Shown: piece by piece, positions 142-12,649 of the stretch
Numbering within the stretch: position 1 is the stretch's first letter
Layout of the letters: each line of letters begins with the position of its first letter
Assembly: GCA_963763325.1 (NCBI GenBank)
Contig: CAVXOL010000024.1
Coordinates: 66,984 to 130,983, forward strand
Origin: an uncultured Chloroflexia bacterium
Lineage (GTDB): Bacteria > Chloroflexota > Chloroflexia > Thermomicrobiales > CFX8
Length of the DNA stretch: 64,000 bases
Direction of reading: 5' to 3'
The notes under the pieces: generated by a model
Told to the model about the DNA's origin: nothing
The model's input: the letters and a program-made list of their open reading frames with translations, nothing else
Databases searched by the model: none
Translations under genes and position numbers: made by a program

Positions 142-1932
142 ATGCGCCGGGTTTGGCCAAACCCGGCTGGGGGGCGTTTCGTGCGTATCATCTGGCGAAT
201 CATCGGCTATCTCCGTCCGTATCGCGTCGCGCTCGTCGTCGCGTATGTCAGTCTGTTCATCGCGGTCAGCGCGCAACTGACCGTTCCGTTGCTGGTTGGC
301 TGGGTCATCGACGAAGGGATTGCGGGCGACGACCAGGATCTGATCTTGACCGGAGCGATTCTCATCGTTGGTGTCGTCGCGATCCAGTCGATCTTCACGT
401 ACATCCGAACGTATCTGTTTCAAGCACTCGCCGAACGCGTCGCGACTGACGTGCGCCGGCAACTGTACGAGCACATGCTGACGCTGTCGTTCTCGTTCTT
501 TGACACGTCACAGTCCGGCCAGTTGATGTCGAGAGCGACAGAAGACGTCAACGCGATCCGCCGCTTCATGATGTTCTCGTTGCGGATGGCAATCTACAGT
601 GTCTCGATTCTGCTGGTCGTCAGCGTCGTCCTGCTCCGTACGCATCTCGCGCTGGCGTTAATCTCGCTCGCCGTCATGCCGGTCCTGGTCTGGACCTCGA
701 TTTACTTTTCTTCCCATGTCCGACCGATGTTCTCGCGCATTCAACAGCAGTTTGGTGAGATGTCGAGCGTCATGCAGGAGAACCTGGCTGGTACGCGGGT
801 CGTGCGCGTCTTCGCGCGCGAGGAAGATGAAACGACTAAGTTCGATTCATCGCTCCGCTCACTCATGATGAAGCAGATGGACGCAATTCGGTACTACTCG
901 TTCTTCTTCCCACTCATGCACTTCATCTCGGGTATCTCATTGCTGGCGGTCCTCTGGTATGGCGGCCGGCAGGTGCTCAACGGTTCGATCTCGGTTGGAA
1001 CGCTCGTCACGTTCAACATTTACCTGACCTTGCTGGCGAATCCGATCCGGCAACTGGGCTGGATCATGAACTCGGTCGCGAGGGCCATTGCCTCGGGCGA
1101 GCGTATCTTCGAGATCACCGACAGCCGTCCGATCATCCGCGATTCGCCAGGCGCGATCGAATTGACGGAACCGCGCGGTGAGATCCTGTTGGACGATGTC
1201 TCGTTCACTTATCCACACGCGCCACGTCCTGCTCTCAGAGATGTGAGCGTCGCGGCCAACCCCGGCGAGGTGATCGGGCTGATAGGATCGACTGGCAGTG
1301 GCAAGAGTTCGCTGACGGCGCTGGTCGCCCGGTTCTACGACGTGTCGTCGGGTCGGATCCTCTTCGACGGCGTCGACATCCGCGACCTCAAGCTGGCTTT
1401 CCTGCGTCGCAACGTCGGGTTCGTGATGCAGGAGACATTCCTGTTCTCGTCAACGATCAGCGACAACATCGCCTTCGGCAATCCAGATGCTTCAATCGAG
1501 CAGATTGAACGGGCAGCACGCATCGCCCGTGCGCATGACTTCATCATGGCAATGCCCGATGGCTACCATACGAAGCTCGGCGAACGCGGCATTTCGCTCT
1601 CAGGTGGGCAACGGCAACGCGTCGCAATTGCACGAGCGATCTGTAGTGACCCGCGGATTCTGATCCTCGACGACGCGACATCCAGCGTCGATACCGAGAC
1701 CGAGTGGGAGATCCAGCAAGCGCTCAAGGACGCAATGGAAGGGCGGACGACGTTCGTCATCGCCCAGCGTGTTTCGACGTTGAAAGATGCCGACGAGATT
1801 CTCGTCCTCGAAGACGGCGCTGTCGTTGAGCGTGGGACGCACCTGACGTTGATCGAGCAAGCTGGCGTCTATGCGCGCCTCTACGAACTGCAACTCAAGA
1901 ACCAGGAGGAGCTCGCGCAGGCGGCTGATTAG
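142..1932 (+). CDS. ABC transporter permease/ATP-binding protein (type I exporter half-transporter, partner 1)
   Basis: 596-aa ORF with an N-terminal multi-TM domain followed by an NBD. Motifs: Walker A GSTGSGKSS, signature LSGGQRQRV, Walker B ILILDDATSSVD. The start may be GTG at 181. Confidence 0.9.
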   Translation: MRRVWPNPAGGRFVRIIWRIIGYLRPYRVALVVAYVSLFIAVSAQLTVPLLVGWVIDEGIAGDDQDLILTGAILIVGVVAIQSIFTYIRTYLFQALAERVATDVRRQLYEHMLTLSFSFFDTSQSGQLMSRATEDVNAIRRFMMFSLRMAIYSVSILLVVSVVLLRTHLALALISLAVMPVLVWTSIYFSSHVRPMFSRIQQQFGEMSSVMQENLAGTRVVRVFAREEDETTKFDSSLRSLMMKQMDAIRYYSFFFPLMHFISGISLLAVLWYGGRQVLNGSISVGTLVTFNIYLTLLANPIRQLGWIMNSVARAIASGERIFEITDSRPIIRDSPGAIELTEPRGEILLDDVSFTYPHAPRPALRDVSVAANPGEVIGLIGSTGSGKSSLTALVARFYDVSSGRILFDGVDIRDLKLAFLRRNVGFVMQETFLFSSTISDNIAFGNPDASIEQIERAARIARAHDFIMAMPDGYHTKLGERGISLSGGQRQRVAIARAICSDPRILILDDATSSVDTETEWEIQQALKDAMEGRTTFVIAQRVSTLKDADEILVLEDGAVVERGTHLTLIEQAGVYARLYELQLKNQEELAQAAD

Positions 1933-1946
1933 CCCCACGGCGAAGA

Positions 1947-3764
1947 ATGATGCGGACTGCTGCCGACCCGGACGATCTGTTAGGAAAGGCCTACGACAGC
2001 CGCGTGGCTGGTCGGCTGATCGGCCATGTCCGCCCGTACCGCAAAGAAGCCTGGTTCGCGCTCTTCCTGATCGTCGCAACGACTGCGCTTGACCTCGCCG
2101 TCCCGTTCCTGTTCGGACGAGCAGTCGACATCGTGAATCGCGAAGACGGCGTCACGTACCTCGGACAGACCGGCACCAGTGCGCTCGACCTGATCGCGCT
2201 CTCATTCCTTGCCGTCATCGCCGTCCGCTTCGTCGGTCGCAACCGTGAGCTGTACATCATGTCCCGGCTCGGACAGAAGATCGTCTACGATCTGCGCTCC
2301 TCGATGTTCCGCCATATCCAGAAGGTCGGCATCCGCTACATCGACAAACGTGGCGTCGGCTCGATCATGTCACGACTGCAGAACGATGTCTCGGTCATCG
2401 ACCAACTCTTCACCGACGGGCTGATCGAGATTCTCTCGCAGTTTGCGATCCTGATCGGGATCATCATCCTGATGTGGGTGACCAACGCGAAGCTCGCGTT
2501 GCTGGCGTTCGCCGTCTTGCCGATCATGATCGTCCTGATGGTCTTCTGGCGCCGCCGCGCGATCGTCACCTATCGTCAAACTCGCATCACCATTGCTCGC
2601 GTAAACGGCTTCCTGGCGGAGAATATCGCCGGTGTACGGGTAATTCAGTCGTTCACCCGCGAGCCGATCAACCAGAGCCAGTTCCGCTCGATCAACGACG
2701 ACAACCTTGATGCCAACCTGAGCGCTGCCCGGCTCTCTGCTCTGCTGTTTCCGTTCGTGACCTTCGTCGAAGCACTCGCGACGGCGCTGGTCCTGTTCGT
2801 CGGTGGTCGCATGGTGCTCGGCCCCGATGCGTTCACGATCGGCGAGCTGACCTTCTTCGTCCTCCTGATTGCGCGGTTCTACGAGCCGATCAACCACCTC
2901 TCGCAGGGCTACAACACGATGCAGGCCGCGATGGCCGCCGGTGAGCGTATCTTCGACATTCTCGACATCGACGTCGAGATCCAGGACAAGCCCAATGCGA
3001 GCGTGTTACCGCGAATCCAGGGCCGCGTCGAGTTCGATCATGTCCGCTTCGGCTACGACGACAAGGAGATTCTGCACGACGTCTCACTTGATGTTGCGCC
3101 CGGAGAGTCGATTGCGTTCGTCGGCGAGACGGGTGCCGGGAAGACCTCGATGATCAATCTGATCTCGCGCTTCTACGATGTCTGGGATGGCGCGATTCGG
3201 ATCGACGGTTACGACGTACGCGACGTAACGCAGCACTCACTGCGATCTCAGCTCGGCGTCGTCCTTCAGGACACGTTCCTGTTCGCCGGCACGATCCGGG
3301 AGAACATCCGTTTCGCGCGGCCCGACGCGACCGATGCCGAGATCATTGATGCAGCCAGAGGCAGTCGGCGCACACGACTTCATCATGAAGCTCTCCGGCG
3401 GATATGATGCCGAGGTACACGAACGCGGCGCGACGCTCTCGGTTGGCCAACGGCAGCTATTGTCGTTCGCCCGCGCGCTGATCGCCGACCCTCGCATCAT
3501 CATCCTCGATGAGGCGACCTCAAGCGTCGATACCGAGACCGAGATCGTGATTCAGGCGGCGCTCCGACGTCTGCTGGCAGGCAGAACGTCGTTCATCATC
3601 GCCCACCGCCTCTCGACCATCCGCGAGGAAGCCGCGTTGTCGTCATGGACCAGGGCCGGATCGTCGAGATCGGTACCCACGACGAACTGCTCGATCGTCG
3701 CGGCGTCTACTACAACCTCTACACGATGCAGTTCCGCGCCGAGACAGCCGCAGCCGCGGACTGA
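1947..3764 (+). CDS. ABC transporter permease/ATP-binding protein (partner 2), readable only with two frame changes (about 3355 and about 3630)
   Basis: Assembled from ORF 1947..3407, ORF 3334..3894 and a third frame that ends at TGA 3762-3764. Motifs: Walker [31 protein letters not shown]. The tail ...[30 protein letters not shown] appears only after shifting frame. Confidence 0.8.
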
Positions 3765-3890
3765 CGCGGAACACAATAAGGCAGAAGCGCCAGATTCAGG
3801 TCCGTGGTCACGGTTTGGTCACAACCATCGACGCGTCAATCGCACCGAAAAGGGATTAGAGAGATGTCAACACCTATCACTGACAACAGC

Positions 3891-4770
3891 CTAGAGGGTG
3901 TTATGCACTTCCGGCGAGCAGCAGTTTCGTGACCCGACCGAGCATCAGGACGGAGAAGGCGACCAAGTGGAGCCCCTTCACGGTCTCCTCCAGTCGCTCA
4001 TAATCCTTGGCCAGCCGCCGAAAGCGGGTGAGCCAGGCAAACGAGCGTTCAACCACCCAGCGGCGTGGCAACAGCACGAAACCCTGGCGTGCTTCGGGCA
4101 GCTTGACCACCTCCAGGCGAATCCCCCAGCCCTCGGCATCCAGTGCAGCCTCCGTGCCCGTATAGCCTTGATCGACGTAGGCCAGCTCAACCGTGTCGCC
4201 GGTCGCGTCCTGCACCGCTGCCGCCAGTTCCTCGACCTGCGCGCGATCCCCCGCGTCGGCCGGGGTGACGACCAGTGCCAGGAACTCACCCAGCGTATCG
4301 ACCGCCAGATGCAGCTTCGTACCCTTCTTGCGCTTGTGACCATCGTAGCCGCCTCGGTCACGATTCTCGACCGATCCCGACAGCGTCCGGCTGTCGAAGA
4401 TGGCGGCGGTTGGCTCGACCGTTTTCCCTTCCCCAAGCCGAATCAGGGCACGCAGATCGGCCACGATCGCCTCGAAACAGCCGGCACGGAACCAGCGCTG
4501 GCTCTGCTGGTAGACCGTGTGGTACGGCGGCAGGTCATGCGGCATGTAGCGCCACGGAGATCCCGTCCGCACGATCCAGCGCAGGCCGTTGAGCACTTCA
4601 CGCAGGTCGTGGTCGCGTTGTGGCGCATCGGGCTTCATCAACGTCAAGTAGGGAGCGACGAAGTCCCATTCCTCGTCGCTGATGTCACTCGGGTAACGGT
4701 TCCGTGATGCTGTCGTATCCATGCCAGAAGCGTATCGACGAATGGCACAGAGTTTCATAACACCCTTTAG
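3891..4770. mobile_element. IS5-family insertion sequence (about 880 bp) with imperfect terminal inverted repeats
   Basis: Left end CTAGAGGGTGTTATG (3891-3905) matches the reverse complement of the right end CATAACACCCTTTAG (4756-4770). TA/TAG is present at both junctions, consistent with a 2-3 bp target duplication. It contains a single transposase ORF. Confidence 0.8.
3901..4758 (-). CDS. IS5-family DDE transposase
   Basis: 285-aa uninterrupted ORF. The N-terminal RYPSDISDEEWDFVAPYL and the C-terminal VVERSFAWLTRFRRLAKDYE segments are typical of IS5/DDE_Tnp_1 transposases. The first ATG lies inside the terminal repeat; an alternative start is M13 at 4722. Confidence 0.85.
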   Translation of the reverse strand: MKLCAIRRYASGMDTTASRNRYPSDISDEEWDFVAPYLTLMKPDAPQRDHDLREVLNGLRWIVRTGSPWRYMPHDLPPYHTVYQQSQRWFRAGCFEAIVADLRALIRLGEGKTVEPTAAIFDSRTLSGSVENRDRGGYDGHKRKKGTKLHLAVDTLGEFLALVVTPADAGDRAQVEELAAAVQDATGDTVELAYVDQGYTGTEAALDAEGWGIRLEVVKLPEARQGFVLLPRRWVVERSFAWLTRFRRLAKDYERLEETVKGLHLVAFSVLMLGRVTKLLLAGSA

Positions 4771-4820
4771 TACAGCGATTTTTCAACGCCGCCGAATACT
4801 TAGCGTCCTCAGACGCCGGC

Positions 4821-5039
4821 TTGGTTGAGCGGCTGAAGTATGTGAACGCGTACGAAATCGGGATCGTTCTGGCAGATCACATCCAGCCGTTTCCTGCGGA
4901 TATGGTTGATCAACCGAACGAGATTAGAGATGCACTTGACCGAGTTGACACCCTAAGCGTCGATGAAGCGGCTCATGTAGCGAAGGCGATTGGCAGGCTT
5001 GCGTTCGACGCATGGAGGCGGTCGCCCTATCATCCGTAG
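4821..5039 (+). CDS. Hypothetical small protein (72 aa, TTG start) in an AT-richer spacer
   Basis: ORF only; I recognise no family. Confidence 0.25.
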   Translation: MVERLKYVNAYEIGIVLADHIQPFPADMVDQPNEIRDALDRVDTLSVDEAAHVAKAIGRLAFDAWRRSPYHP

Positions 5040-5126
5040 AGAGGCTAGCGCGGCGCTATCCTCAACCAGACGATTCAGGACCATCGGGACAGGACGTACG
5101 TACCGCGCCGTGTTATCCTAAAGATG

Positions 5127-5211
5127 TCCCCACGGCGGGACTCGAACCCGCAAAACCTGTCGGGGAACCCGGTTGGCAACCGGGCGCGTTTGCCAGTTTC
5201 GCCACGTGGGG
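5127..5211 (-). tRNA. Class II (long variable arm) tRNA with anticodon GCC; the body resembles tRNA-Leu and may be a pseudogene
   Basis: Minus-strand cloverleaf: acceptor CCCCACG/CGTGGGG; TG; D arm GCG-AAACTGGCAAA-CGC; anticodon stem CCCGG/CCGGG with loop TTGCCAA; 16-nt variable region TTCCCCGACAGGTTTT; T arm GCGGG-TTCGAGT-CCCGC; discriminator A; no encoded CCA. Confidence 0.6.
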
Positions 5212-5220
5212 ATAGCGGGA

Positions 5221-5260
5221 TAGCTCCGGGGACGGTTCCTAGGCCAGACCCCCGGAGCTA
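5221..5260. terminator. 11-bp perfect stem-loop overlapping the stop codon of the 5258..5930 gene, 9 nt from the tRNA 5' end
   Basis: TAGCTCCGGGG (5221-5231) pairs with CCCCGGAGCTA (5250-5260) across an 18-nt loop. TTCGTTTTCT follows on the plus strand. Confidence 0.4.
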
Positions 5261-5930
5261 TTCGTTTTCTGTCATCAACTCCAGTTCGTCATCGGCGTCC
5301 TCCTCACGGAGCGCGCTATCGTCGTGCCATCGCTCCGACTCATAACCGTTGATCCGCGCAATCAGGTCTCGCAAGAAATCCATGTCGCGCTGATCCAAGT
5401 CGAACAGGTTGACGTCGTAGTCAACCGTCAGTGTTCCACCGCTCCGTAGTTCCACTGTCTTCGACGTCGCGCTTCCCGTGCCGTTCCGAGTTGGAACGGT
5501 CGAGTTCAGGGGTTTCATTGATTGCTTGAGTCGCCTGTGGGGCAGGGCGGGAACGTCGCACGGGAGCACGCCCGTTCGGCTTGGCCACGGTTCTTGGTGC
5601 CTTGGTCTTGTTGGTGATGAACGTCGAGAGGGGGATGCCCGCAAACTGCGTGGCATGCAGAAAGAACGTGATTGCCTTTCGGCGAGTGTCACCTTCGACT
5701 TTGTAGAGTCTCCCAAACGCCTGTTCCAGTTGTCCGAGAGTTGCACGAGTGACGTCGATCTCGTTGAACAACGGCTCATACTTCGCCTGGATTACCTCGC
5801 TCAAGACCTCCTTCCGCTCACTCGTCTTGACGAGGCGGACGAGCGTCGGCGTCGGCTCATCACCAGGGTCAGTTATGAGGTTGAGGAAGCGCATCGCCGT
5901 CATGATCTGGCTTCCAAGTCCTCCAGCCAT
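5258..5930 (-). pseudogene. Hypothetical protein split by one frame change (about 5485); weak resemblance to DUF5343-type proteins
   Basis: ORF 5421..5930 (MAGGLGSQIMTAMRFLNLITDPGDEPTPTLV...) continues into ORF 5258..5779 (...VELRSGGTLTVDYDVNLFDLDQRDMDFLRDLIARINGYE...) only after a frame shift. The family assignment is from memory and uncertain. Confidence 0.4.
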
Positions 5931-6197
5931 GAAGGTCCCCCAGTAGGTCCGGTCGATGTTCGTTGTGGTAGTCCGTCTGCCTCCAGTCGATCAAGTAGAT
6001 TCGTGAAGCTGCTAAACAGATACGTAGGGCGGCACTGCCGTCCGCGCGGTATCCTGTGCCATCATATCCTGCCAGTCGTTCCATGTCCGTACGTATTTGT
6101 GCCAGATGCCGGCTTGCGCAACAAACGGAATATACCACGGGCGGCGACACGGAGTCAACTCGCCATGGTATAGCGCATATTGGTGAACTGGTTGTCA

Positions 6198-6960
6198 TCA
6201 AAGATGGTTCGCGGTAATCGGATCGAAACTGTTACCCGGTTGAGGGCTGGTGGGCGAGACGTGGGGTGTAGACGACGTCAAGAATCGTTGCCGCCTCTTG
6301 TTCCATGTCCGCGTAAACATGGGCGTATACCTTTAACGTTACCGTTGGATTCCCATGTCCAAGCATCCGTCCGACGGTCGTGTATGGGTACCACGTTTCT
6401 GATGGCGAGTGAGGCGACCGTGTGCCGCAGCCCGTGGATCGTTACGTCTTCCGGCAGGTCAAGCTGGCGCTTGATGGTACGCCAGCGACGGCTCTAAACG
6501 AGGTTGGATTGGCATAGTGGCCGCCGGCGCCGTTGTCGATGATGGCTCCGGTGTCCGTCCATGCCACACCGATCCGGAGCCGACGCTCCAACTGGTCCTT
6601 CCGATGCCGGTGGAGGGCATCGGAGCAGACGAACGGGATGGTGATCGTGCGTCGGGAAGCATCCGTCTTGGCGTCGTCACCGATCACCCAAGACGATGTA
6701 CCGGCGCCGGTCATCGTGCGCTCGACTCGGTGCGACCGATAGTCCGTGTCGAGGTCGGACCACCGCAACTCCAGCACCTCATCGATCCGCAACCCACAGA
6801 CCACCATAAGCGCCCTCGCGGCGCGGTCGGGATCGTCAACCGTCCCGTCGATCAGCCGGCGGGCCTCGTCTTCGGAGAGGATCGCCTTCGCAACCGGCTG
6901 TCACTTTCGGTAGCCGGATACCCCGACATGGCGTCCGGGCGATCACCTCCTACATCAACG
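6198..6960 (-). pseudogene. Tyrosine recombinase / phage-type integrase remnant, N-terminally truncated with at least 3 frame changes
   Basis: The catalytic motifs lie in different frames. GLRIDEVLELRWSDLD is in ORF 6442..6807. HGLRH is at 6422-6436. LGHGNPTVTLKVYAHVY is at about 6313-6360. The stop is at 6198. The upstream ...RGIRLPKV/EDEARRLIDG pieces need further shifts, and no N-terminal SAM-like domain precedes the neighbouring gene at 6981. Confidence 0.75.
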
Positions 6961-6980
6961 TCTCGGGATTCGAGGCGAAG

Positions 6981-7763
6981 TCAAAGCCCAAACTGCATTT
7001 GTCTGGCTGGAAGCCGGGTGATCTCAGCTCGCTCGTAACGGGGGAGCGGTGCGATCGGAATGTCGTGTCCCATGAGGGCGAGAGCTTCTCTGACAGTTCC
7101 AACAGCGATATCCGGGTCATTGTTCTTGTCGGACAGGTGCGCCAGCCAGACCGTTTGCGTCCGTGACGACACAGCCCCAGCCAGCGCGGTCGCGCAGTCG
7201 TCGTTGCCGAGGTGACCGGCTGGCCCCTGGATACGCCGCTTCAAGTACGACGGGTACGGGCCGTTGATCAACATCTGGCGATCGTAGTTTGCCTCAAGCA
7301 CGATCACGTCGGCACTGCCAAGTGCGTCATAGACTTCCGCGCTGACGTGGCCGAGGTCGGTGAAGACCGCAACGCGCAGCCCGTCGTGTTCGGCGACAAA
7401 CCCGCAAGGCTCGGCAGCGTCGTGGGAGACACCGATGAACGACACCTCCAAGGCCGAGTCATTGAACCGCTCGCCCGACGAACGGCGATTGAGGCGCAAA
7501 CTCGTGCGCATCGCTCCGTGGGTGCCATGAGTGGTGATGAGCGGAATATCGAGCTTGCGTGTGATCGACGGAATCGACCGGACGTGGTCGCTGTGTTCGT
7601 GGCTGACGACGATGCCTGCCAGCCGTTCGGCCACACCATAATCGCGGATCGCGGACTGGCAGGCTCGTACCGCGATGCCGCAGTCAATCAGAAGCGCGAC
7701 GTCACCGGTGTCGAGCAGGAATCCATTCCCGCTGCTACCGGACCCGAGAGACACAACCCGCAT
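6981..7763 (-). CDS. MBL-fold metallo-hydrolase
   Basis: 260-aa ORF with the HEHSDH zinc motif (VVSHEHSDHV). Its start overlaps the yggS stop (TGATG). Confidence 0.85.
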   Translation of the reverse strand: MRVVSLGSGSSGNGFLLDTGDVALLIDCGIAVRACQSAIRDYGVAERLAGIVVSHEHSDHVRSIPSITRKLDIPLITTHGTHGAMRTSLRLNRRSSGERFNDSALEVSFIGVSHDAAEPCGFVAEHDGLRVAVFTDLGHVSAEVYDALGSADVIVLEANYDRQMLINGPYPSYLKRRIQGPAGHLGNDDCATALAGAVSSRTQTVWLAHLSDKNNDPDIAVGTVREALALMGHDIPIAPLPRYERAEITRLPARQMQFGL

Positions 7764-8481
7764 CAGCCGGCCGTCGACTCAGCAAAGATCGCTCGACCAA
7801 CCCTGACGATCGTGGCACCCTCTTCAATCGCGGCGACATAATCGTTGGTCATCCCCATCGAGAGGTCATCCAGCGTCGCGTCAGGGTAGCGCGATCGCAT
7901 CGCTTCAGCCAGTTCGCGCATTTCCGCGAACACCGGCCTCGCGTCTTCGGCGGCGGTGCCGAGTGGGGCCATTGTCATGAACCCACGCAACTCCAACGCT
8001 GTGCATGCCAGCGTCGCCTCGATCAGTCCCGGAAGATCCTCGACGAGACAGCCGTGCTTCTGTTCCTCGCGGGCGACGTTGACCTGAATCAGCACCGGCA
8101 GCCTCATGCCGGCCATCTGGCAGCGCCGGTCCAGCTCGGTTGCGAGTGCAACTCGATCGAGTGAGTGGACGACATGGAAATGGCCCGGAACGAAGCGCGC
8201 CTTGTTGGTCTGGAGCGTGCCGATCAGGTGCAGGACGAGATCGTCCGGCACCTCGTCCGCGAACGTTTCGAGCGCGTTCTGGACCCGATTTTCGCCGAAA
8301 TGCCGGAGACCAGCCGCGTACGCTTCGTCGACTTCAGCGCGCGTCACCGTCTTCGAGACTCCAACCAGCGTGACGCTGCCGGCAGTTCGACCCGCCGAGC
8401 GTCTCGGCGGCCGTCGATTCGCTCACGGACCGCCAGCAGCCGGTCCTGGAGCGTCATCAGCGGGGACGATGTCGTCGTCAT
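7763..8481 (-). CDS. yggS: YggS-family pyridoxal-phosphate homeostasis protein, N-terminal part out of frame (about 8385-8420)
   Basis: ORF 7763..8347 carries FGENRVQ. The upstream MTTTSSPLMTLQDRLLAVRERI... and SVTLVGVSKTV segments sit in other frames. Confidence 0.75.
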
Positions 8482-11010: not shown

Positions 11011-12649
11011 CTAATAGCTCTCCAGGCTAATCGGCACGTCAATGATCACCGGCATCTCGCTTGACTTGGCGGCTGCCAGTGCCTCTGACAAAGCCTCCGG
11101 TGATTCAGCCCGGATGCCCTGGATACCGTAGGCGTCGGCCAGCTTCACGTAGTCGGGGTTTACCAGATCGACCGCGACATAACGGCCTGGATACGTCCGC
11201 TTCTGGGCTGCCTTGACAGCCGTATGGGTGCTGTCGTTGAAGATCACGGTCGTCACCGGGATACGGTGGTGGACGGCGGCACCGAGCTCTTCCATCGTGA
11301 ACTGGAAGCCACCGTCGCCAACCATCGCGACGACCTGCTTGTCAGGGCAGCCGACCTTCGCGCCAATCGCTGTCGGTAGCGCCGAGCCGAGCGTTCCAAA
11401 GCCACGCGGGAACGTGTAGCTGCGCGGCTCGTAGACCGGGAAGTAGCGAACACCCTCGTAGGCCATCATCGTCATGTCATTACAGAGAATCGCGTCGCGG
11501 TCCATGCCTTCGCGCATCGCATCGATGTACGGGACATAACCGGCCACGCGTGCGTCGGATGGCTCGAACAGCCGATCGCGGATGATCGCAACCTGTTCCT
11601 CGCTCCAGCGCTCCTTCGGTCGGCTGCCGGATCGGACAGCCTCCAGGAGGTCGCTTAGCGCCCGCGTGGCGTCTGCGATGATGCTGACATCCGGCTGATA
11701 CCGCTTGCCGTGCTCGGCCGGGTCGATGTCGATGTGGATCAGCTTCGATGGGAGCGGCATCGTGCCCTCGCCACTGGTGCGGACTCCGAGTCCCGAGCCA
11801 ACCACGATCGCGAGATCGCTCTTCTGCATGACCTCGACGGTCGGGTTGTCTGCCGACCAGCGATACCCAAACGCACCGACCGCGAACGGATGGTCAGCCG
11901 GAATCGCACCCTTGCCCATCAGCGACGTCACGACCGGAGCGCCAAGCTCTTCCGCCAGCGCCTGCAATGCCGCTGCGGCTTCAGCGGATGTCGCGCCGCC
12001 CCCGGCGAAGATCATCACGCGTTCAGATGCGGCAATCAAGCTCGGCGGCTCGGGCGATCTGCCCACTGATGTCGACTGCCGATGTCGAACGCAACAGGGT
12101 GATGTCGTCCATCTCAAGTTCGTCAGCCATCACGTCAATTGGGACTTCGAGATAGATCGGACGAGGACGGCCTGTCCCAATTGCAGTGAACGCTTCGTTG
12201 ACCGATGCCGGGATGTCGCTCGCGTCCATCACGCGCTTACTCCACTTGACGATCGGCTTCATGACGCCCATCTGGTCGGTCATCTCGTGGAGGTTGCCTT
12301 CGAGCGTGTCGATGTACTTGCGCTCCAGGTTGGTTGCGATCACGAAGACACTGGACGAATCAGCAAACGCTTCACCCACCGCCGTCGCGACGTTCGTCAC
12401 TCCCGGGCCGGTCACGATCAGCGCGATGCCGGGCTTGCCGGTCGCCCTGTAATACCCATCGGCCATGAATCCGGCGCCCTGTTCGTGGCGGGCGAGGATG
12501 TTCGTCAGGCCGGGATTCTCATGCAGCGCGTCGTAGATATCCAGGTTGTGAACGCCGGGGATACCGAAGACCGTGTCGACGCCGTGCGCCTTCAGCAATT
12601 CGACAATTGCTTCGCCGCCACGGACACGGTTGCTGATACTGATCGCCAT
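11011..12649 (-). CDS. Thiamine-pyrophosphate-dependent enzyme (acetolactate-synthase-like family) with one frame change near 12045
   Basis: ORF 12023..12649 is the N-terminal TPP_N domain (GVDTVFGIPGVHNLDIYDAL). ORF 11011..12117 holds the central and TPP-binding domains (VAMVGDGGFQFTMEELG). Confidence 0.8.

Follow-up and report, generated by a model that had tools for sequence, protein, structure and literature searches.

A leucine-type tRNA gene with a glycine anticodon on a degraded mobile element of a Thermomicrobiales bacterium, and related leucine-type tRNAs with non-leucine anticodons

In a stretch of 64,000 nucleotides from an uncultured Chloroflexia bacterium (GTDB order Thermomicrobiales, CFX8; assembly GCA_963763325.1, contig CAVXOL010000024.1, positions 66,984 to 130,983; hereafter the window), we analysed a tRNA gene that joins a leucine-type body to the glycine anticodon GCC. 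The gene is encoded on the minus strand within a lineage-specific insertion of about 3.2 kb and is preceded by a GC-rich hairpin. The tRNA gene and the hairpin are placed as follows, in window positions.

5127..5211, minus strand: 85-nt tRNA gene of class II; body of leucine type, anticodon GCC, discriminator A73, CCA not encoded (ARAGORN, Rfam RF00005, direct reading, Leu/Ser/Tyr profiles)
5175..5177, minus strand: anticodon G34 C35 C36 in the loop UUGCCAA, with U33 and A37 present (ARAGORN; the loop is that of E. coli tRNA-Gly(GCC))
5220..5261, minus strand: GC-rich hairpin with perfect 12-bp arms (5220-5231 and 5250-5261) and an 18-nt loop (repeat search)

The tRNA gene and its body identity

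ARAGORN called a tRNA at 5126-5211 on the minus strand, with the anticodon GCC placed at position 35. The Rfam tRNA family RF00005 matched 5127-5211 on the same strand with 57.3 bits (E = 9.6e-10 against the whole window), far above its gathering score of 29, so the match is not due to chance. The alignment spans model positions 1-71, with a long insertion falling in the variable region, and no other Rfam family (tRNA-Sec included) was detected in 3500-7200 at E <= 1. The gene is 85 nt long and reads CCCCACGTGGCGAAACTGGCAAACGCGCCCGGTTGCCAACCGGGTTCCCCGACAGGTTTTGCGGGTTCGAGTCCCGCCGTGGGGA on the minus strand. Its 7-bp acceptor stem (CCCCACG/CGTGGGG) is followed by U8 and G9, a 3-bp D stem (GCG/CGC) that closes an 11-nt D loop (AAACUGGCAAA), an anticodon stem of five GC pairs (CCCGG/CCGGG), a 16-nt variable region (UUCCCCGACAGGUUUU) and a canonical T arm (GCGGG-UUCGAGU-CCCGC). 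All 20 stem pairs are Watson-Crick pairs, and the conserved nucleotides U8, A14, G18G19, U33 and G53-T54-T55-C56-A58-C61 are present. The discriminator base A73 corresponds to window position 5127 and the next three bases are CAT, so CCA is not encoded. The minimum-free-energy structure found by thermodynamic folding is other than the cloverleaf (z = -1.23), as is usual for tRNA genes. An alternative anticodon register that would give CAA was ruled out by the stem and loop lengths. The original prediction had described an 85-nt minus-strand cloverleaf with GCC in a normal 7-nt loop, a weak variable stem (about two GC pairs) and no CCA; direct reading, ARAGORN and Rfam agree with it in all these structural details, and the low covariance-model score that would have spoken against a tRNA is not what we found.

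The full-length BLAST matches, which come from phage and plasmid records, are all tRNA-Leu genes with 72-79% identity, and ARAGORN assigns them to Leu(UAA/CAA). Using anticodon-masked nhmmer profiles built from 60 Leu, 123 Ser and 15 Tyr tRNAs of the fetched loci (tRNAs sharing the D arm of the window tRNA were excluded), the gene scored 44.5, 25.3 and 13.2 bits, respectively. The determinants of leucyl-tRNA synthetase (LeuRS) in E. coli are A73, A15-U48, G18G19, A20a and the tertiary pairs that join the D loop to the T loop, and the Aquifex aeolicus enzyme additionally requires U8:A14, while the anticodon and the variable arm are dispensable and C2-G71 acts as an antideterminant for seryl-tRNA synthetase (PMC9976931). 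The window tRNA has A73, U8:A14, A15-U48, G18G19, A20a and C2-G71, together with the tertiary pairs G18:U55, G19:C56 and U54:A58. Every tRNA-Leu feature that we tested is therefore present except the anticodon, where GCC takes the place of NAG or YAA at a distance of at least two substitutions from any leucine anticodon.

The other isotypes fit less well. The features of bacterial tRNA-Gly include a class I body, G1-C72 and U73, the last two being elements for bacterial glycyl-tRNA synthetase (GlyRS; PMC9976931), whereas the window tRNA is of class II with a 16-nt variable region, C1-G72, A73 and a D arm of leucine type. It does have C35, C36 and C2-G71 in common with tRNA-Gly(GCC), and it has the same 7-nt loop, UUGCCAA, as E. 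coli tRNA-Gly(GCC), a sequence that was checked in 5,426 E. coli genomes. A tRNA-Ser assignment is contradicted by A73 in place of G73, C2-G71, the weak variable stem and the lower Ser profile score; tRNA-Tyr and tRNA-Sec are disfavoured by the lower Tyr profile score and the lack of a tRNA-Sec match at E <= 1. Judged by sequence, the body is of leucine type and the anticodon loop of glycine type. A class II, Leu-like body had been proposed from the letters alone, with the remark that LeuRS and SerRS do not read the anticodon; the identity elements, the nearest relatives (all tRNA-Leu) and the top-scoring Leu profile speak for the body, and the indifference of LeuRS to the anticodon is stated in the literature (PMC9976931).

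Compared with canonical bacterial tRNA-Leu, the window tRNA has the same 7/5 cloverleaf, 3-bp D stem, 11-nt D loop and long variable region, as well as A14, A15, G18G19, A20a, U48, A73 and C2-G71. It differs in the GCC anticodon (not NAG/YAA) with its tRNA-Gly loop, in a very weak variable stem and in C1-G72, which replaces the usual G1-C72. It also differs in its location on a mobile-element remnant and in the presence of an upstream hairpin instead of a promoter.

Leucine-type tRNAs with non-leucine anticodons

With one genome taken for each GTDB species, we searched for class II tRNAs of Leu/Ser type that have the loop TTGCCAA. The pattern matched at least 119 times and, among the matches listed, 22 are ARAGORN-confirmed Leu-like tRNA(GCC) genes. 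Class II GCC tRNAs, which the original prediction had suggested looking for in related genomes, are thus found across phyla, the taxa of these at least 22 genes being Gemmatimonadota, Acidobacteriota, Planctomycetota, Eremiobacterota, Alphaproteobacteria, Clostridia, Bacteroidota and Dehalococcoidia. Among the 22 listed, 14 have good acceptor stems and eight have unpaired acceptor ends. A73 is found in 13 of the 14; the exception, L071, is Ser-like, has G73 and encodes CCA. Viral contigs contain seven further Leu-like tRNA(GCC) genes. When Leu-like bodies with the eight NCC/NCG anticodons were compared in viral contigs, GCC was found seven times and all others together once (ACC).

For metagenomes, the search pattern prescribed no anticodon and required only the D arm and T loop of the window tRNA. 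At least 119 Leu-like tRNAs share these; among those listed, 94 have leucine anticodons and 25 (21%) have non-leucine anticodons, namely CAC (5), UUA (4), GUC (4), UGG (3), AUC (2), UUC (2) and one each of UGC, GGC, CGC, GGA and UGA. The non-leucine anticodons met across the searches are GCC, CAC, GUC, AUC, UGG, UUC, UGC, GGC, CGC, GGA, UGA, AGA, CAU, UUA and CUA. Many of the closest relatives of the window tRNA, ranked among the tRNAs collected here (a set biased by the search patterns), carry such anticodons (L357, L255, L261, L331 and L323), and these five have a weak TCC...GGA-type variable arm and the T arm in common with it. By scaffold, the nearest relative in the collection is a tRNA(AGA) from a 91-kb viral contig (L375). 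The two agree base for base over an unbroken stretch of 26 that begins at U8, takes in the D arm and ends with the 5' strand of the anticodon stem; the 3' strand of this stem and the first five variable-region bases are identical as well. The window tRNA therefore belongs to a widespread set of leucine-type bodies that keep a conserved cloverleaf and carry non-leucine anticodons.

Members of this set appear to be under constraint. In an alignment of 32 members with non-leucine anticodons (including the window tRNA), 98.4% of the stem cells form standard pairs and in 15 of the 20 pairs both partners vary. Covariation scores 0.72 compared with 0.17 in shuffles, none of 500 shuffles reaches the observed value and slid controls pair at 38-47%; much of this covariation could predate the anticodon change. 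Sharper evidence of constraint comes from the GCC copies of Gemmatimonadota, where L053 has the same acceptor stem and loop as L116 and L119, yet its anticodon stem departs from theirs at two to three fully compensatory pairs. For the window tRNA, neutral drift as far as GCC would be expected to have disrupted many of the 40 stem positions and about 12 invariant positions, and none is disrupted. The stems and conserved nucleotides are intact while at least two of the three anticodon bases have changed, which makes decay unlikely, and a single indel cannot give a 7-nt loop with two substitutions, which makes a sequencing error unlikely as well. The idea in the original prediction that a decayed tRNA-Leu pseudogene or a sequence error was likely is therefore unsupported, also in view of the many independent relatives.

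At position 33, C replaces the universal U in seven of 19 distinct members with non-leucine anticodons and in one of 58 canonical ones (Fisher p = 1.4e-4; loci L244-L363). The window tRNA retains U33.

A second kind of Leu-like GCC element has intact D, anticodon and T arms and two to three unpaired positions at the top of the acceptor stem. It was found in eight genomes (L008, L010, L012, L020, L021, L023, L066 and L088) and five viral contigs (L126, L144, L188, L195 and L214), and a 3' tail resembling CGAAA(T/A) is seen in several copies. The isolate Butyribacter intestini (L023) and four viral contigs have copies that are nearly the same in sequence, two of which are identical. From their sequences, these elements look unfit for aminoacylation. 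Four further viral tRNAs of 82-86 nt (L140, L165, L207 and L239) have the anticodon UCC and a glycine acceptor end (GCGGG...U73-CCA); we predict that these are tRNA-Gly with a long variable region, distinct from the GCC tRNAs with leucine bodies.

Several irregular tRNAs occur in clusters. The viral contig of L375 (IMGVR_UViG_3300047509_000177) encodes five tRNA-like genes within 3.6 kb (1322-4961), comprising a class I tRNA(UAA), the Leu-like tRNA(AGA), a Leu-like tRNA(CAU), a Sec- or allo-like tRNA(UUC) and a tRNA(UCU). The tRNA(UUC) is 95 nt long and scores 45.1 bits with the tRNA-Sec model (threshold 47), and a fragment of an IS1595-type transposase adjoins the cluster. Leu-like tRNA(AUC) genes are in tandem with a Leu-like amber suppressor tRNA(CUA) in L312 (1380-1559) and with an allo-like tRNA of 91 nt and an 8-bp acceptor stem in L320 (734-916), the spacing in both tandems being 2-8 nt.

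A second subfamily has the acceptor stem GCYGGYG and a canonical variable arm, with the anticodons CAC (L274/L340), CGC (L314), GUC (L278, L299, L348 and L355) and GGC (L263). The four GUC loci are syntenic on both sides, and an amino-acid permease gene adjoins both L299 (GUC) and L263 (GGC). The CAC and CGC loci have a PAS/GAF histidine-kinase neighbour in common, arranged differently.

We found no protein partner conserved across the loci. An all-versus-all BLASTP comparison of the flanking open reading frames (ORFs; 23, then 39 loci) gave only local synteny groups, and Pfam annotation of about 40 flanking ORFs and of a batch of 82 ORFs gave mixed housekeeping, transposase, restriction-modification and toxin genes. 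Likewise, blastn of 3 kb on either side with the tRNA masked revealed only an IS1595 copy common to L078 and L261. IS1595 (ISXO2-like) transposase genes or fragments lie about 0.1-1.5 kb from irregular tRNAs at unrelated loci (L078, L261, L324 and L375). In two metagenome-assembled genomes of Gemmatimonadota (L116 and L119), about 70 nt upstream of the tRNA(GCC) are nearly identical and no flanking ORF family is shared by BLASTP, which suggests that the mobile unit includes the upstream region.

Two known groups of tRNAs resemble this set. Allo-tRNAs, described from soil metagenomes, have Ser or Ala bodies with highly diverse sense and stop anticodons, are encoded near transposable elements and toxin-antitoxin genes, and include proven missense suppressors that are lethal to E. 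coli upon induction (PMC5389517). Their defining features are G73 or U73, an 8/4 or 9/3 acceptor/T branch and a long D stem capped by a tetraloop (PMC5389517), whereas the window tRNA has a 7/5 branch, a 3-bp D stem with an 11-nt loop and A73. Common to both are a body that disagrees with the anticodon and nearby mobile genes (here an integrase remnant and an IS5 element); in addition, the relatives L375 and L320 adjoin allo- or Sec-like tRNAs, and the tandems of L312 and L320 resemble the polycistrons of irregular tRNAs reported by Mukai et al. (PMC5389517). No leucine identity is described in the main text of that study. The second group, tRNAProX (tRNAProA/N/T) of Streptomyces and Kitasatospora, combines proline identity with other anticodons and causes mistranslation when expressed; it is restricted to Actinomycetes, has a class I body, often lacks U33 and is served by a dedicated prolyl-tRNA synthetase, ProRSx (PMC11415595). 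The mismatch between identity and anticodon is the same, and U33 is missing in seven of 19 non-leucine members here too. The window tRNA differs in its leucine class II body, in keeping U33 and in that no synthetase-like gene was found in the island and its immediate flanks, where we searched. By analogy, the window tRNA would be a missense-suppressor type akin to allo-tRNAs and tRNAProX that belongs to neither family. A literature search of incomplete coverage found no report of leucine-body tRNAs with GCC or other non-leucine anticodons, and leucine-type tRNAs with mismatched anticodons are apparently an undescribed set.

The 3.2-kb insertion and the expression signals

The tRNA gene lies in an island with the following features.

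3767..6983, no strand: lineage-specific insertion of about 3.2 kb between convergent ABC-transporter and metallo-beta-lactamase (MBL)-fold genes (blastn against L364, L365 and L366)
3891..4770, minus strand: IS5-family insertion sequence with 15-nt terminal inverted repeats, 14 of 15 matching (inverted-repeat search)
3901-4758, minus strand: DDE transposase of the IS5 element, 285 aa (Pfam DUF4096 and DDE_Tnp_1)
5258..5518, minus strand: orphan small ORF of about 86 aa, starting MKPLNST... (translation)
5421..5990, minus strand: DUF5343-like ORF (Pfam PF17278, E = 9.8e-6, 26.3 bits with a cut-off of 27)
6235..6900, minus strand: remnant of a tyrosine recombinase (phage integrase), catalytic domain only, spread over three frames (PF00589, PHROG 1)

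Read along the minus strand, the order is integrase remnant, DUF5343-like ORF, orphan ORF, hairpin, tRNA, about 350 bp and IS5. Aligned by blastn, three related Thermomicrobiales contigs (L364, L365 and L366) follow the window as far as 3766 and rejoin it at 6984-6988, and their MBL-fold protein has 82-83% identity to that of the window. In these relatives the ABC-transporter and MBL genes are separated by only about 100-440 bp, with no tRNA. Because collinearity is broken at 3767-6983, the segment is a lineage-specific insertion, and the setting in mobile-element debris that had been proposed from the letters holds, given the integrase remnant and the IS5 element within it. The integrase is supported by PF00589 matches at 6445-6900 (E = 9.4e-8) and 6281-6493 and by PHROG 1 (E = 8.9e-13). 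The DUF5343-like ORF also has a weak match to the candidate defence protein PDC-M34A in PADLOC (E = 7.2e-5). The orphan ORF has no homologue among 5.8 billion proteins and no Pfam, PADLOC or PHROG match; a 1-nt frameshift near 5450-5520 may have separated it from the DUF5343-like gene, of which it would then be the C-terminal end.

None of the island ORFs has a homologue in any of the 376 fetched loci, and a plasmid megablast of 4000-7000 gave no match. Scans with Pfam, PADLOC and PHROG found no toxin, PIN or HEPN gene in the island. A search of the ORFs in the 3.2-kb island and its immediate flanks, the part of the genome that was covered, revealed no synthetase domain. We also considered an attL/attR hybrid left by a tRNA-targeting island and rejected it, as the relatives have no tRNA at the site and both halves of the tRNA are Leu-like.

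The many indels that the original prediction had reported for the window are seen outside the island as well. Relative to the orthologues in L364-L366, the ABC transporter (1947-3764) is broken into three frames, YggS (7763-8347) has 194 aa instead of 238 aa and the thiamine pyrophosphate (TPP) enzyme (11011-12117) has 368 aa instead of 545 aa. The pattern suggests that indel errors are frequent in the assembly, rather than that the genes have decayed. As housekeeping genes are also frameshifted, some of the apparent decay of the island is probably assembly error.

The hairpin that had been noted just upstream of the tRNA is confirmed; it ends 8 nt before the 5' end of the tRNA, and its 5' arm overlaps the TAG stop codon of the orphan ORF. 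A scan of the upstream minus strand, limited to sigma-70-type consensus, found no promoter or terminator. Similar hairpins recur in the related tRNAs. The 60 nt upstream fold with a mean of -23.0 kcal/mol in members with non-leucine anticodons (n = 19) and -16.8 kcal/mol in canonical tRNA-Leu genes of the same sample (n = 80; Mann-Whitney p = 0.002). Many of the former have perfect 10-15-bp hairpins ending 2-20 nt 5' of the tRNA, and by eye many canonical tRNA-Leu genes have TAnAAT-like boxes in their place. With a hairpin in front of it, no promoter detected and a decayed carrier element, the window tRNA is probably expressed in this host at a low level or conditionally, possibly not at all.

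Proposed function, rival explanations and significance

Our preferred reading, which we consider probable, is that the gene encodes an intact leucine-type tRNA with a Gly(GCC) loop, borne by a mobile element, which LeuRS could charge and which would read GGC and GGU as leucine. A small integrative element, since degraded and struck by IS5, would have brought the tRNA into the Thermomicrobiales chromosome. As no promoter of its own is visible, transcription would probably occur by read-through across the hairpin from upstream genes on the same strand. RNase P and then a 3' exonuclease or RNase Z would form the ends of the tRNA, and the CCA-adding enzyme would complete it. LeuRS does not read the anticodon and would therefore leucylate it. 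U33, G34 and the Gly-type loop would allow decoding of GGC and GGU, so that leucine would enter in place of glycine at a level set by expression and by competition from genuine tRNA-Gly. There is precedent for such an effect, as naturally occurring tRNAs of mismatched identity cause misincorporation and are toxic upon induction (PMC5389517; PMC11415595).

A number of observations weigh against leucine insertion by this tRNA. The variable stem has only two G-C pairs, the pair C1-G72 is present in only one of the 32 aligned relatives, and the LeuRS rules that we applied are those of E. coli and Aquifex aeolicus, not of Chloroflexota. CCA is absent from the gene, yet it is encoded by the host tRNA-Met gene in the same window. 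The hairpin lies close to the 5' end and the scan gave no promoter. The carrier is degraded, with a truncated and frameshifted integrase and an insertion sequence adjoining the tRNA, so the gene may no longer be under selection in this host. Inserting leucine for glycine at the abundant GGC codons of a genome with 61% GC would be costly. Finally, some of the allo-tRNAs tested were charged, yet unused in translation (PMC5389517).

We weighed four rival explanations, which in descending order of weight are silent cargo, a tRNA-like RNA that does not decode, charging with glycine and an assembly artefact. A once-functional mismatched tRNA could now be unexpressed cargo of a dead island, still intact as the insertion is recent, and we regard this as possible, if clearly less so than a tRNA charged with leucine. 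The integrase is reduced to a frameshifted catalytic domain, IS5 adjoins the tRNA, the sigma-70-type scan found no promoter, a hairpin lies 8 nt upstream, no CCA is encoded (unlike in the host tRNA-Met gene), and relatives with 82-83% protein identity do not have the island, whose age may therefore be low. However, housekeeping genes are equally frameshifted, so the integrase frameshifts may be assembly indels; the tRNA itself is without any defect; and the hairpin-then-tRNA layout is repeated in related tRNAs, suggesting a regulated arrangement and not an accident. It is improbable, in our judgement, that the product acts outside translation, for example as a regulatory RNA, as a decoy or antidote that presents the tRNA-Gly(GCC) loop to a tRNA-targeting toxin, or as a recombination or processing signal. 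The window copy has U33, a perfect 7-bp acceptor stem, A73 and the loop of a real decoder, and so lacks nothing that charging and decoding require; scans of the island revealed no toxin, PIN or HEPN gene, and no protein partner is common to the loci. A role of this kind would nevertheless fit the C33 found in seven of 19 distinct non-leucine members compared with one of 58 canonical ones, the subgroup of GCC copies with unpaired acceptor ends, and the transposases, AbiEii toxin and restriction-modification system that adjoin some members; many allo-tRNAs may be linked to toxin-antitoxin systems or transposable elements instead of translation, and some irregular tRNAs were charged and ignored by the ribosome (PMC5389517).

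Glycine or dual identity, in which GlyRS would charge the tRNA wholly or in competition with LeuRS and make it a harmless extra tRNA-Gly of unusual shape, seems very improbable. In its favour are the glycine identity elements C35, C36 and C2-G71, the Thermus thermophilus GlyRS elements C50-G64 and G10, the independence of the archaeal Aeropyrum pernix GlyRS from the discriminator base (PMC9976931), the match of the entire loop to tRNA-Gly(GCC) and the dominance of GCC among the Leu-like NCC/NCG matches in viral contigs (seven, compared with one ACC). Against these stand C1-G72 and A73, where G1-C72 is important for the E. coli and Thermus thermophilus GlyRS and U73 for bacterial GlyRS, as well as C16 in place of the Thermus thermophilus element U16 and the complete set of LeuRS identity elements. 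Sister tRNAs also lack the acceptor elements needed by the synthetases of their anticodons, such as G3:U70 in the UGC tRNA L261. That GCC arose through assembly or sequencing errors in an ordinary tRNA-Leu gene is hardly credible, even in a window with many apparent indels (the ABC transporter in three frames, YggS and the TPP enzyme shortened). Indels alter lengths, yet the loop has exactly 7 nt and all stems are in register; at least two substitutions separate any leucine anticodon from GCC; and the same kind of tRNA was detected in independent assemblies from many phyla and in viral contigs.

A tRNA charged with leucine thus remains our preferred reading, and the gene has consequences for annotation and biology. 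Naming by anticodon, as in ARAGORN, calls it tRNA-Gly despite its leucine body, so that tRNA inventories and inferences on codon usage and the genetic code that rely on the anticodon alone would be wrong for this gene and many like it. Conflicts between isotype and anticodon are flagged generically by tRNAscan-SE 2. If expressed and leucylated, the window tRNA would be a natural Gly-to-Leu mistranslator on a mobile element. Among the listed metagenome matches, about one-fifth of one leucine D-arm subtype has non-leucine anticodons, ochre and amber suppressors included, which suggests that such tRNAs are not a curiosity. Encoded mistranslation would be extended from allo-tRNAs and one actinomycete system (tRNAProX) to ordinary leucine-type tRNAs of many phyla. 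The mismatched tRNAs would also be natural LeuRS-compatible scaffolds that tolerate many anticodons, with possible use in codon reassignment and suppressor-tRNA engineering.

A broader proposal is more doubtful. The window tRNA might represent a large class, so far undescribed, of tRNAs that accept leucine, move horizontally and have been reprogrammed to many sense codons and to stop codons. Mobile elements would hold these tRNAs near-silent through a terminator-like hairpin immediately upstream or through C33 and deploy them as conditional devices for proteome poisoning or recoding. If this is true, they could act for example as an anti-host weapon or as a toxin-like module for addiction or abortive infection, and tRNA identity itself would be a weapon in the conflict between mobile elements and their hosts.

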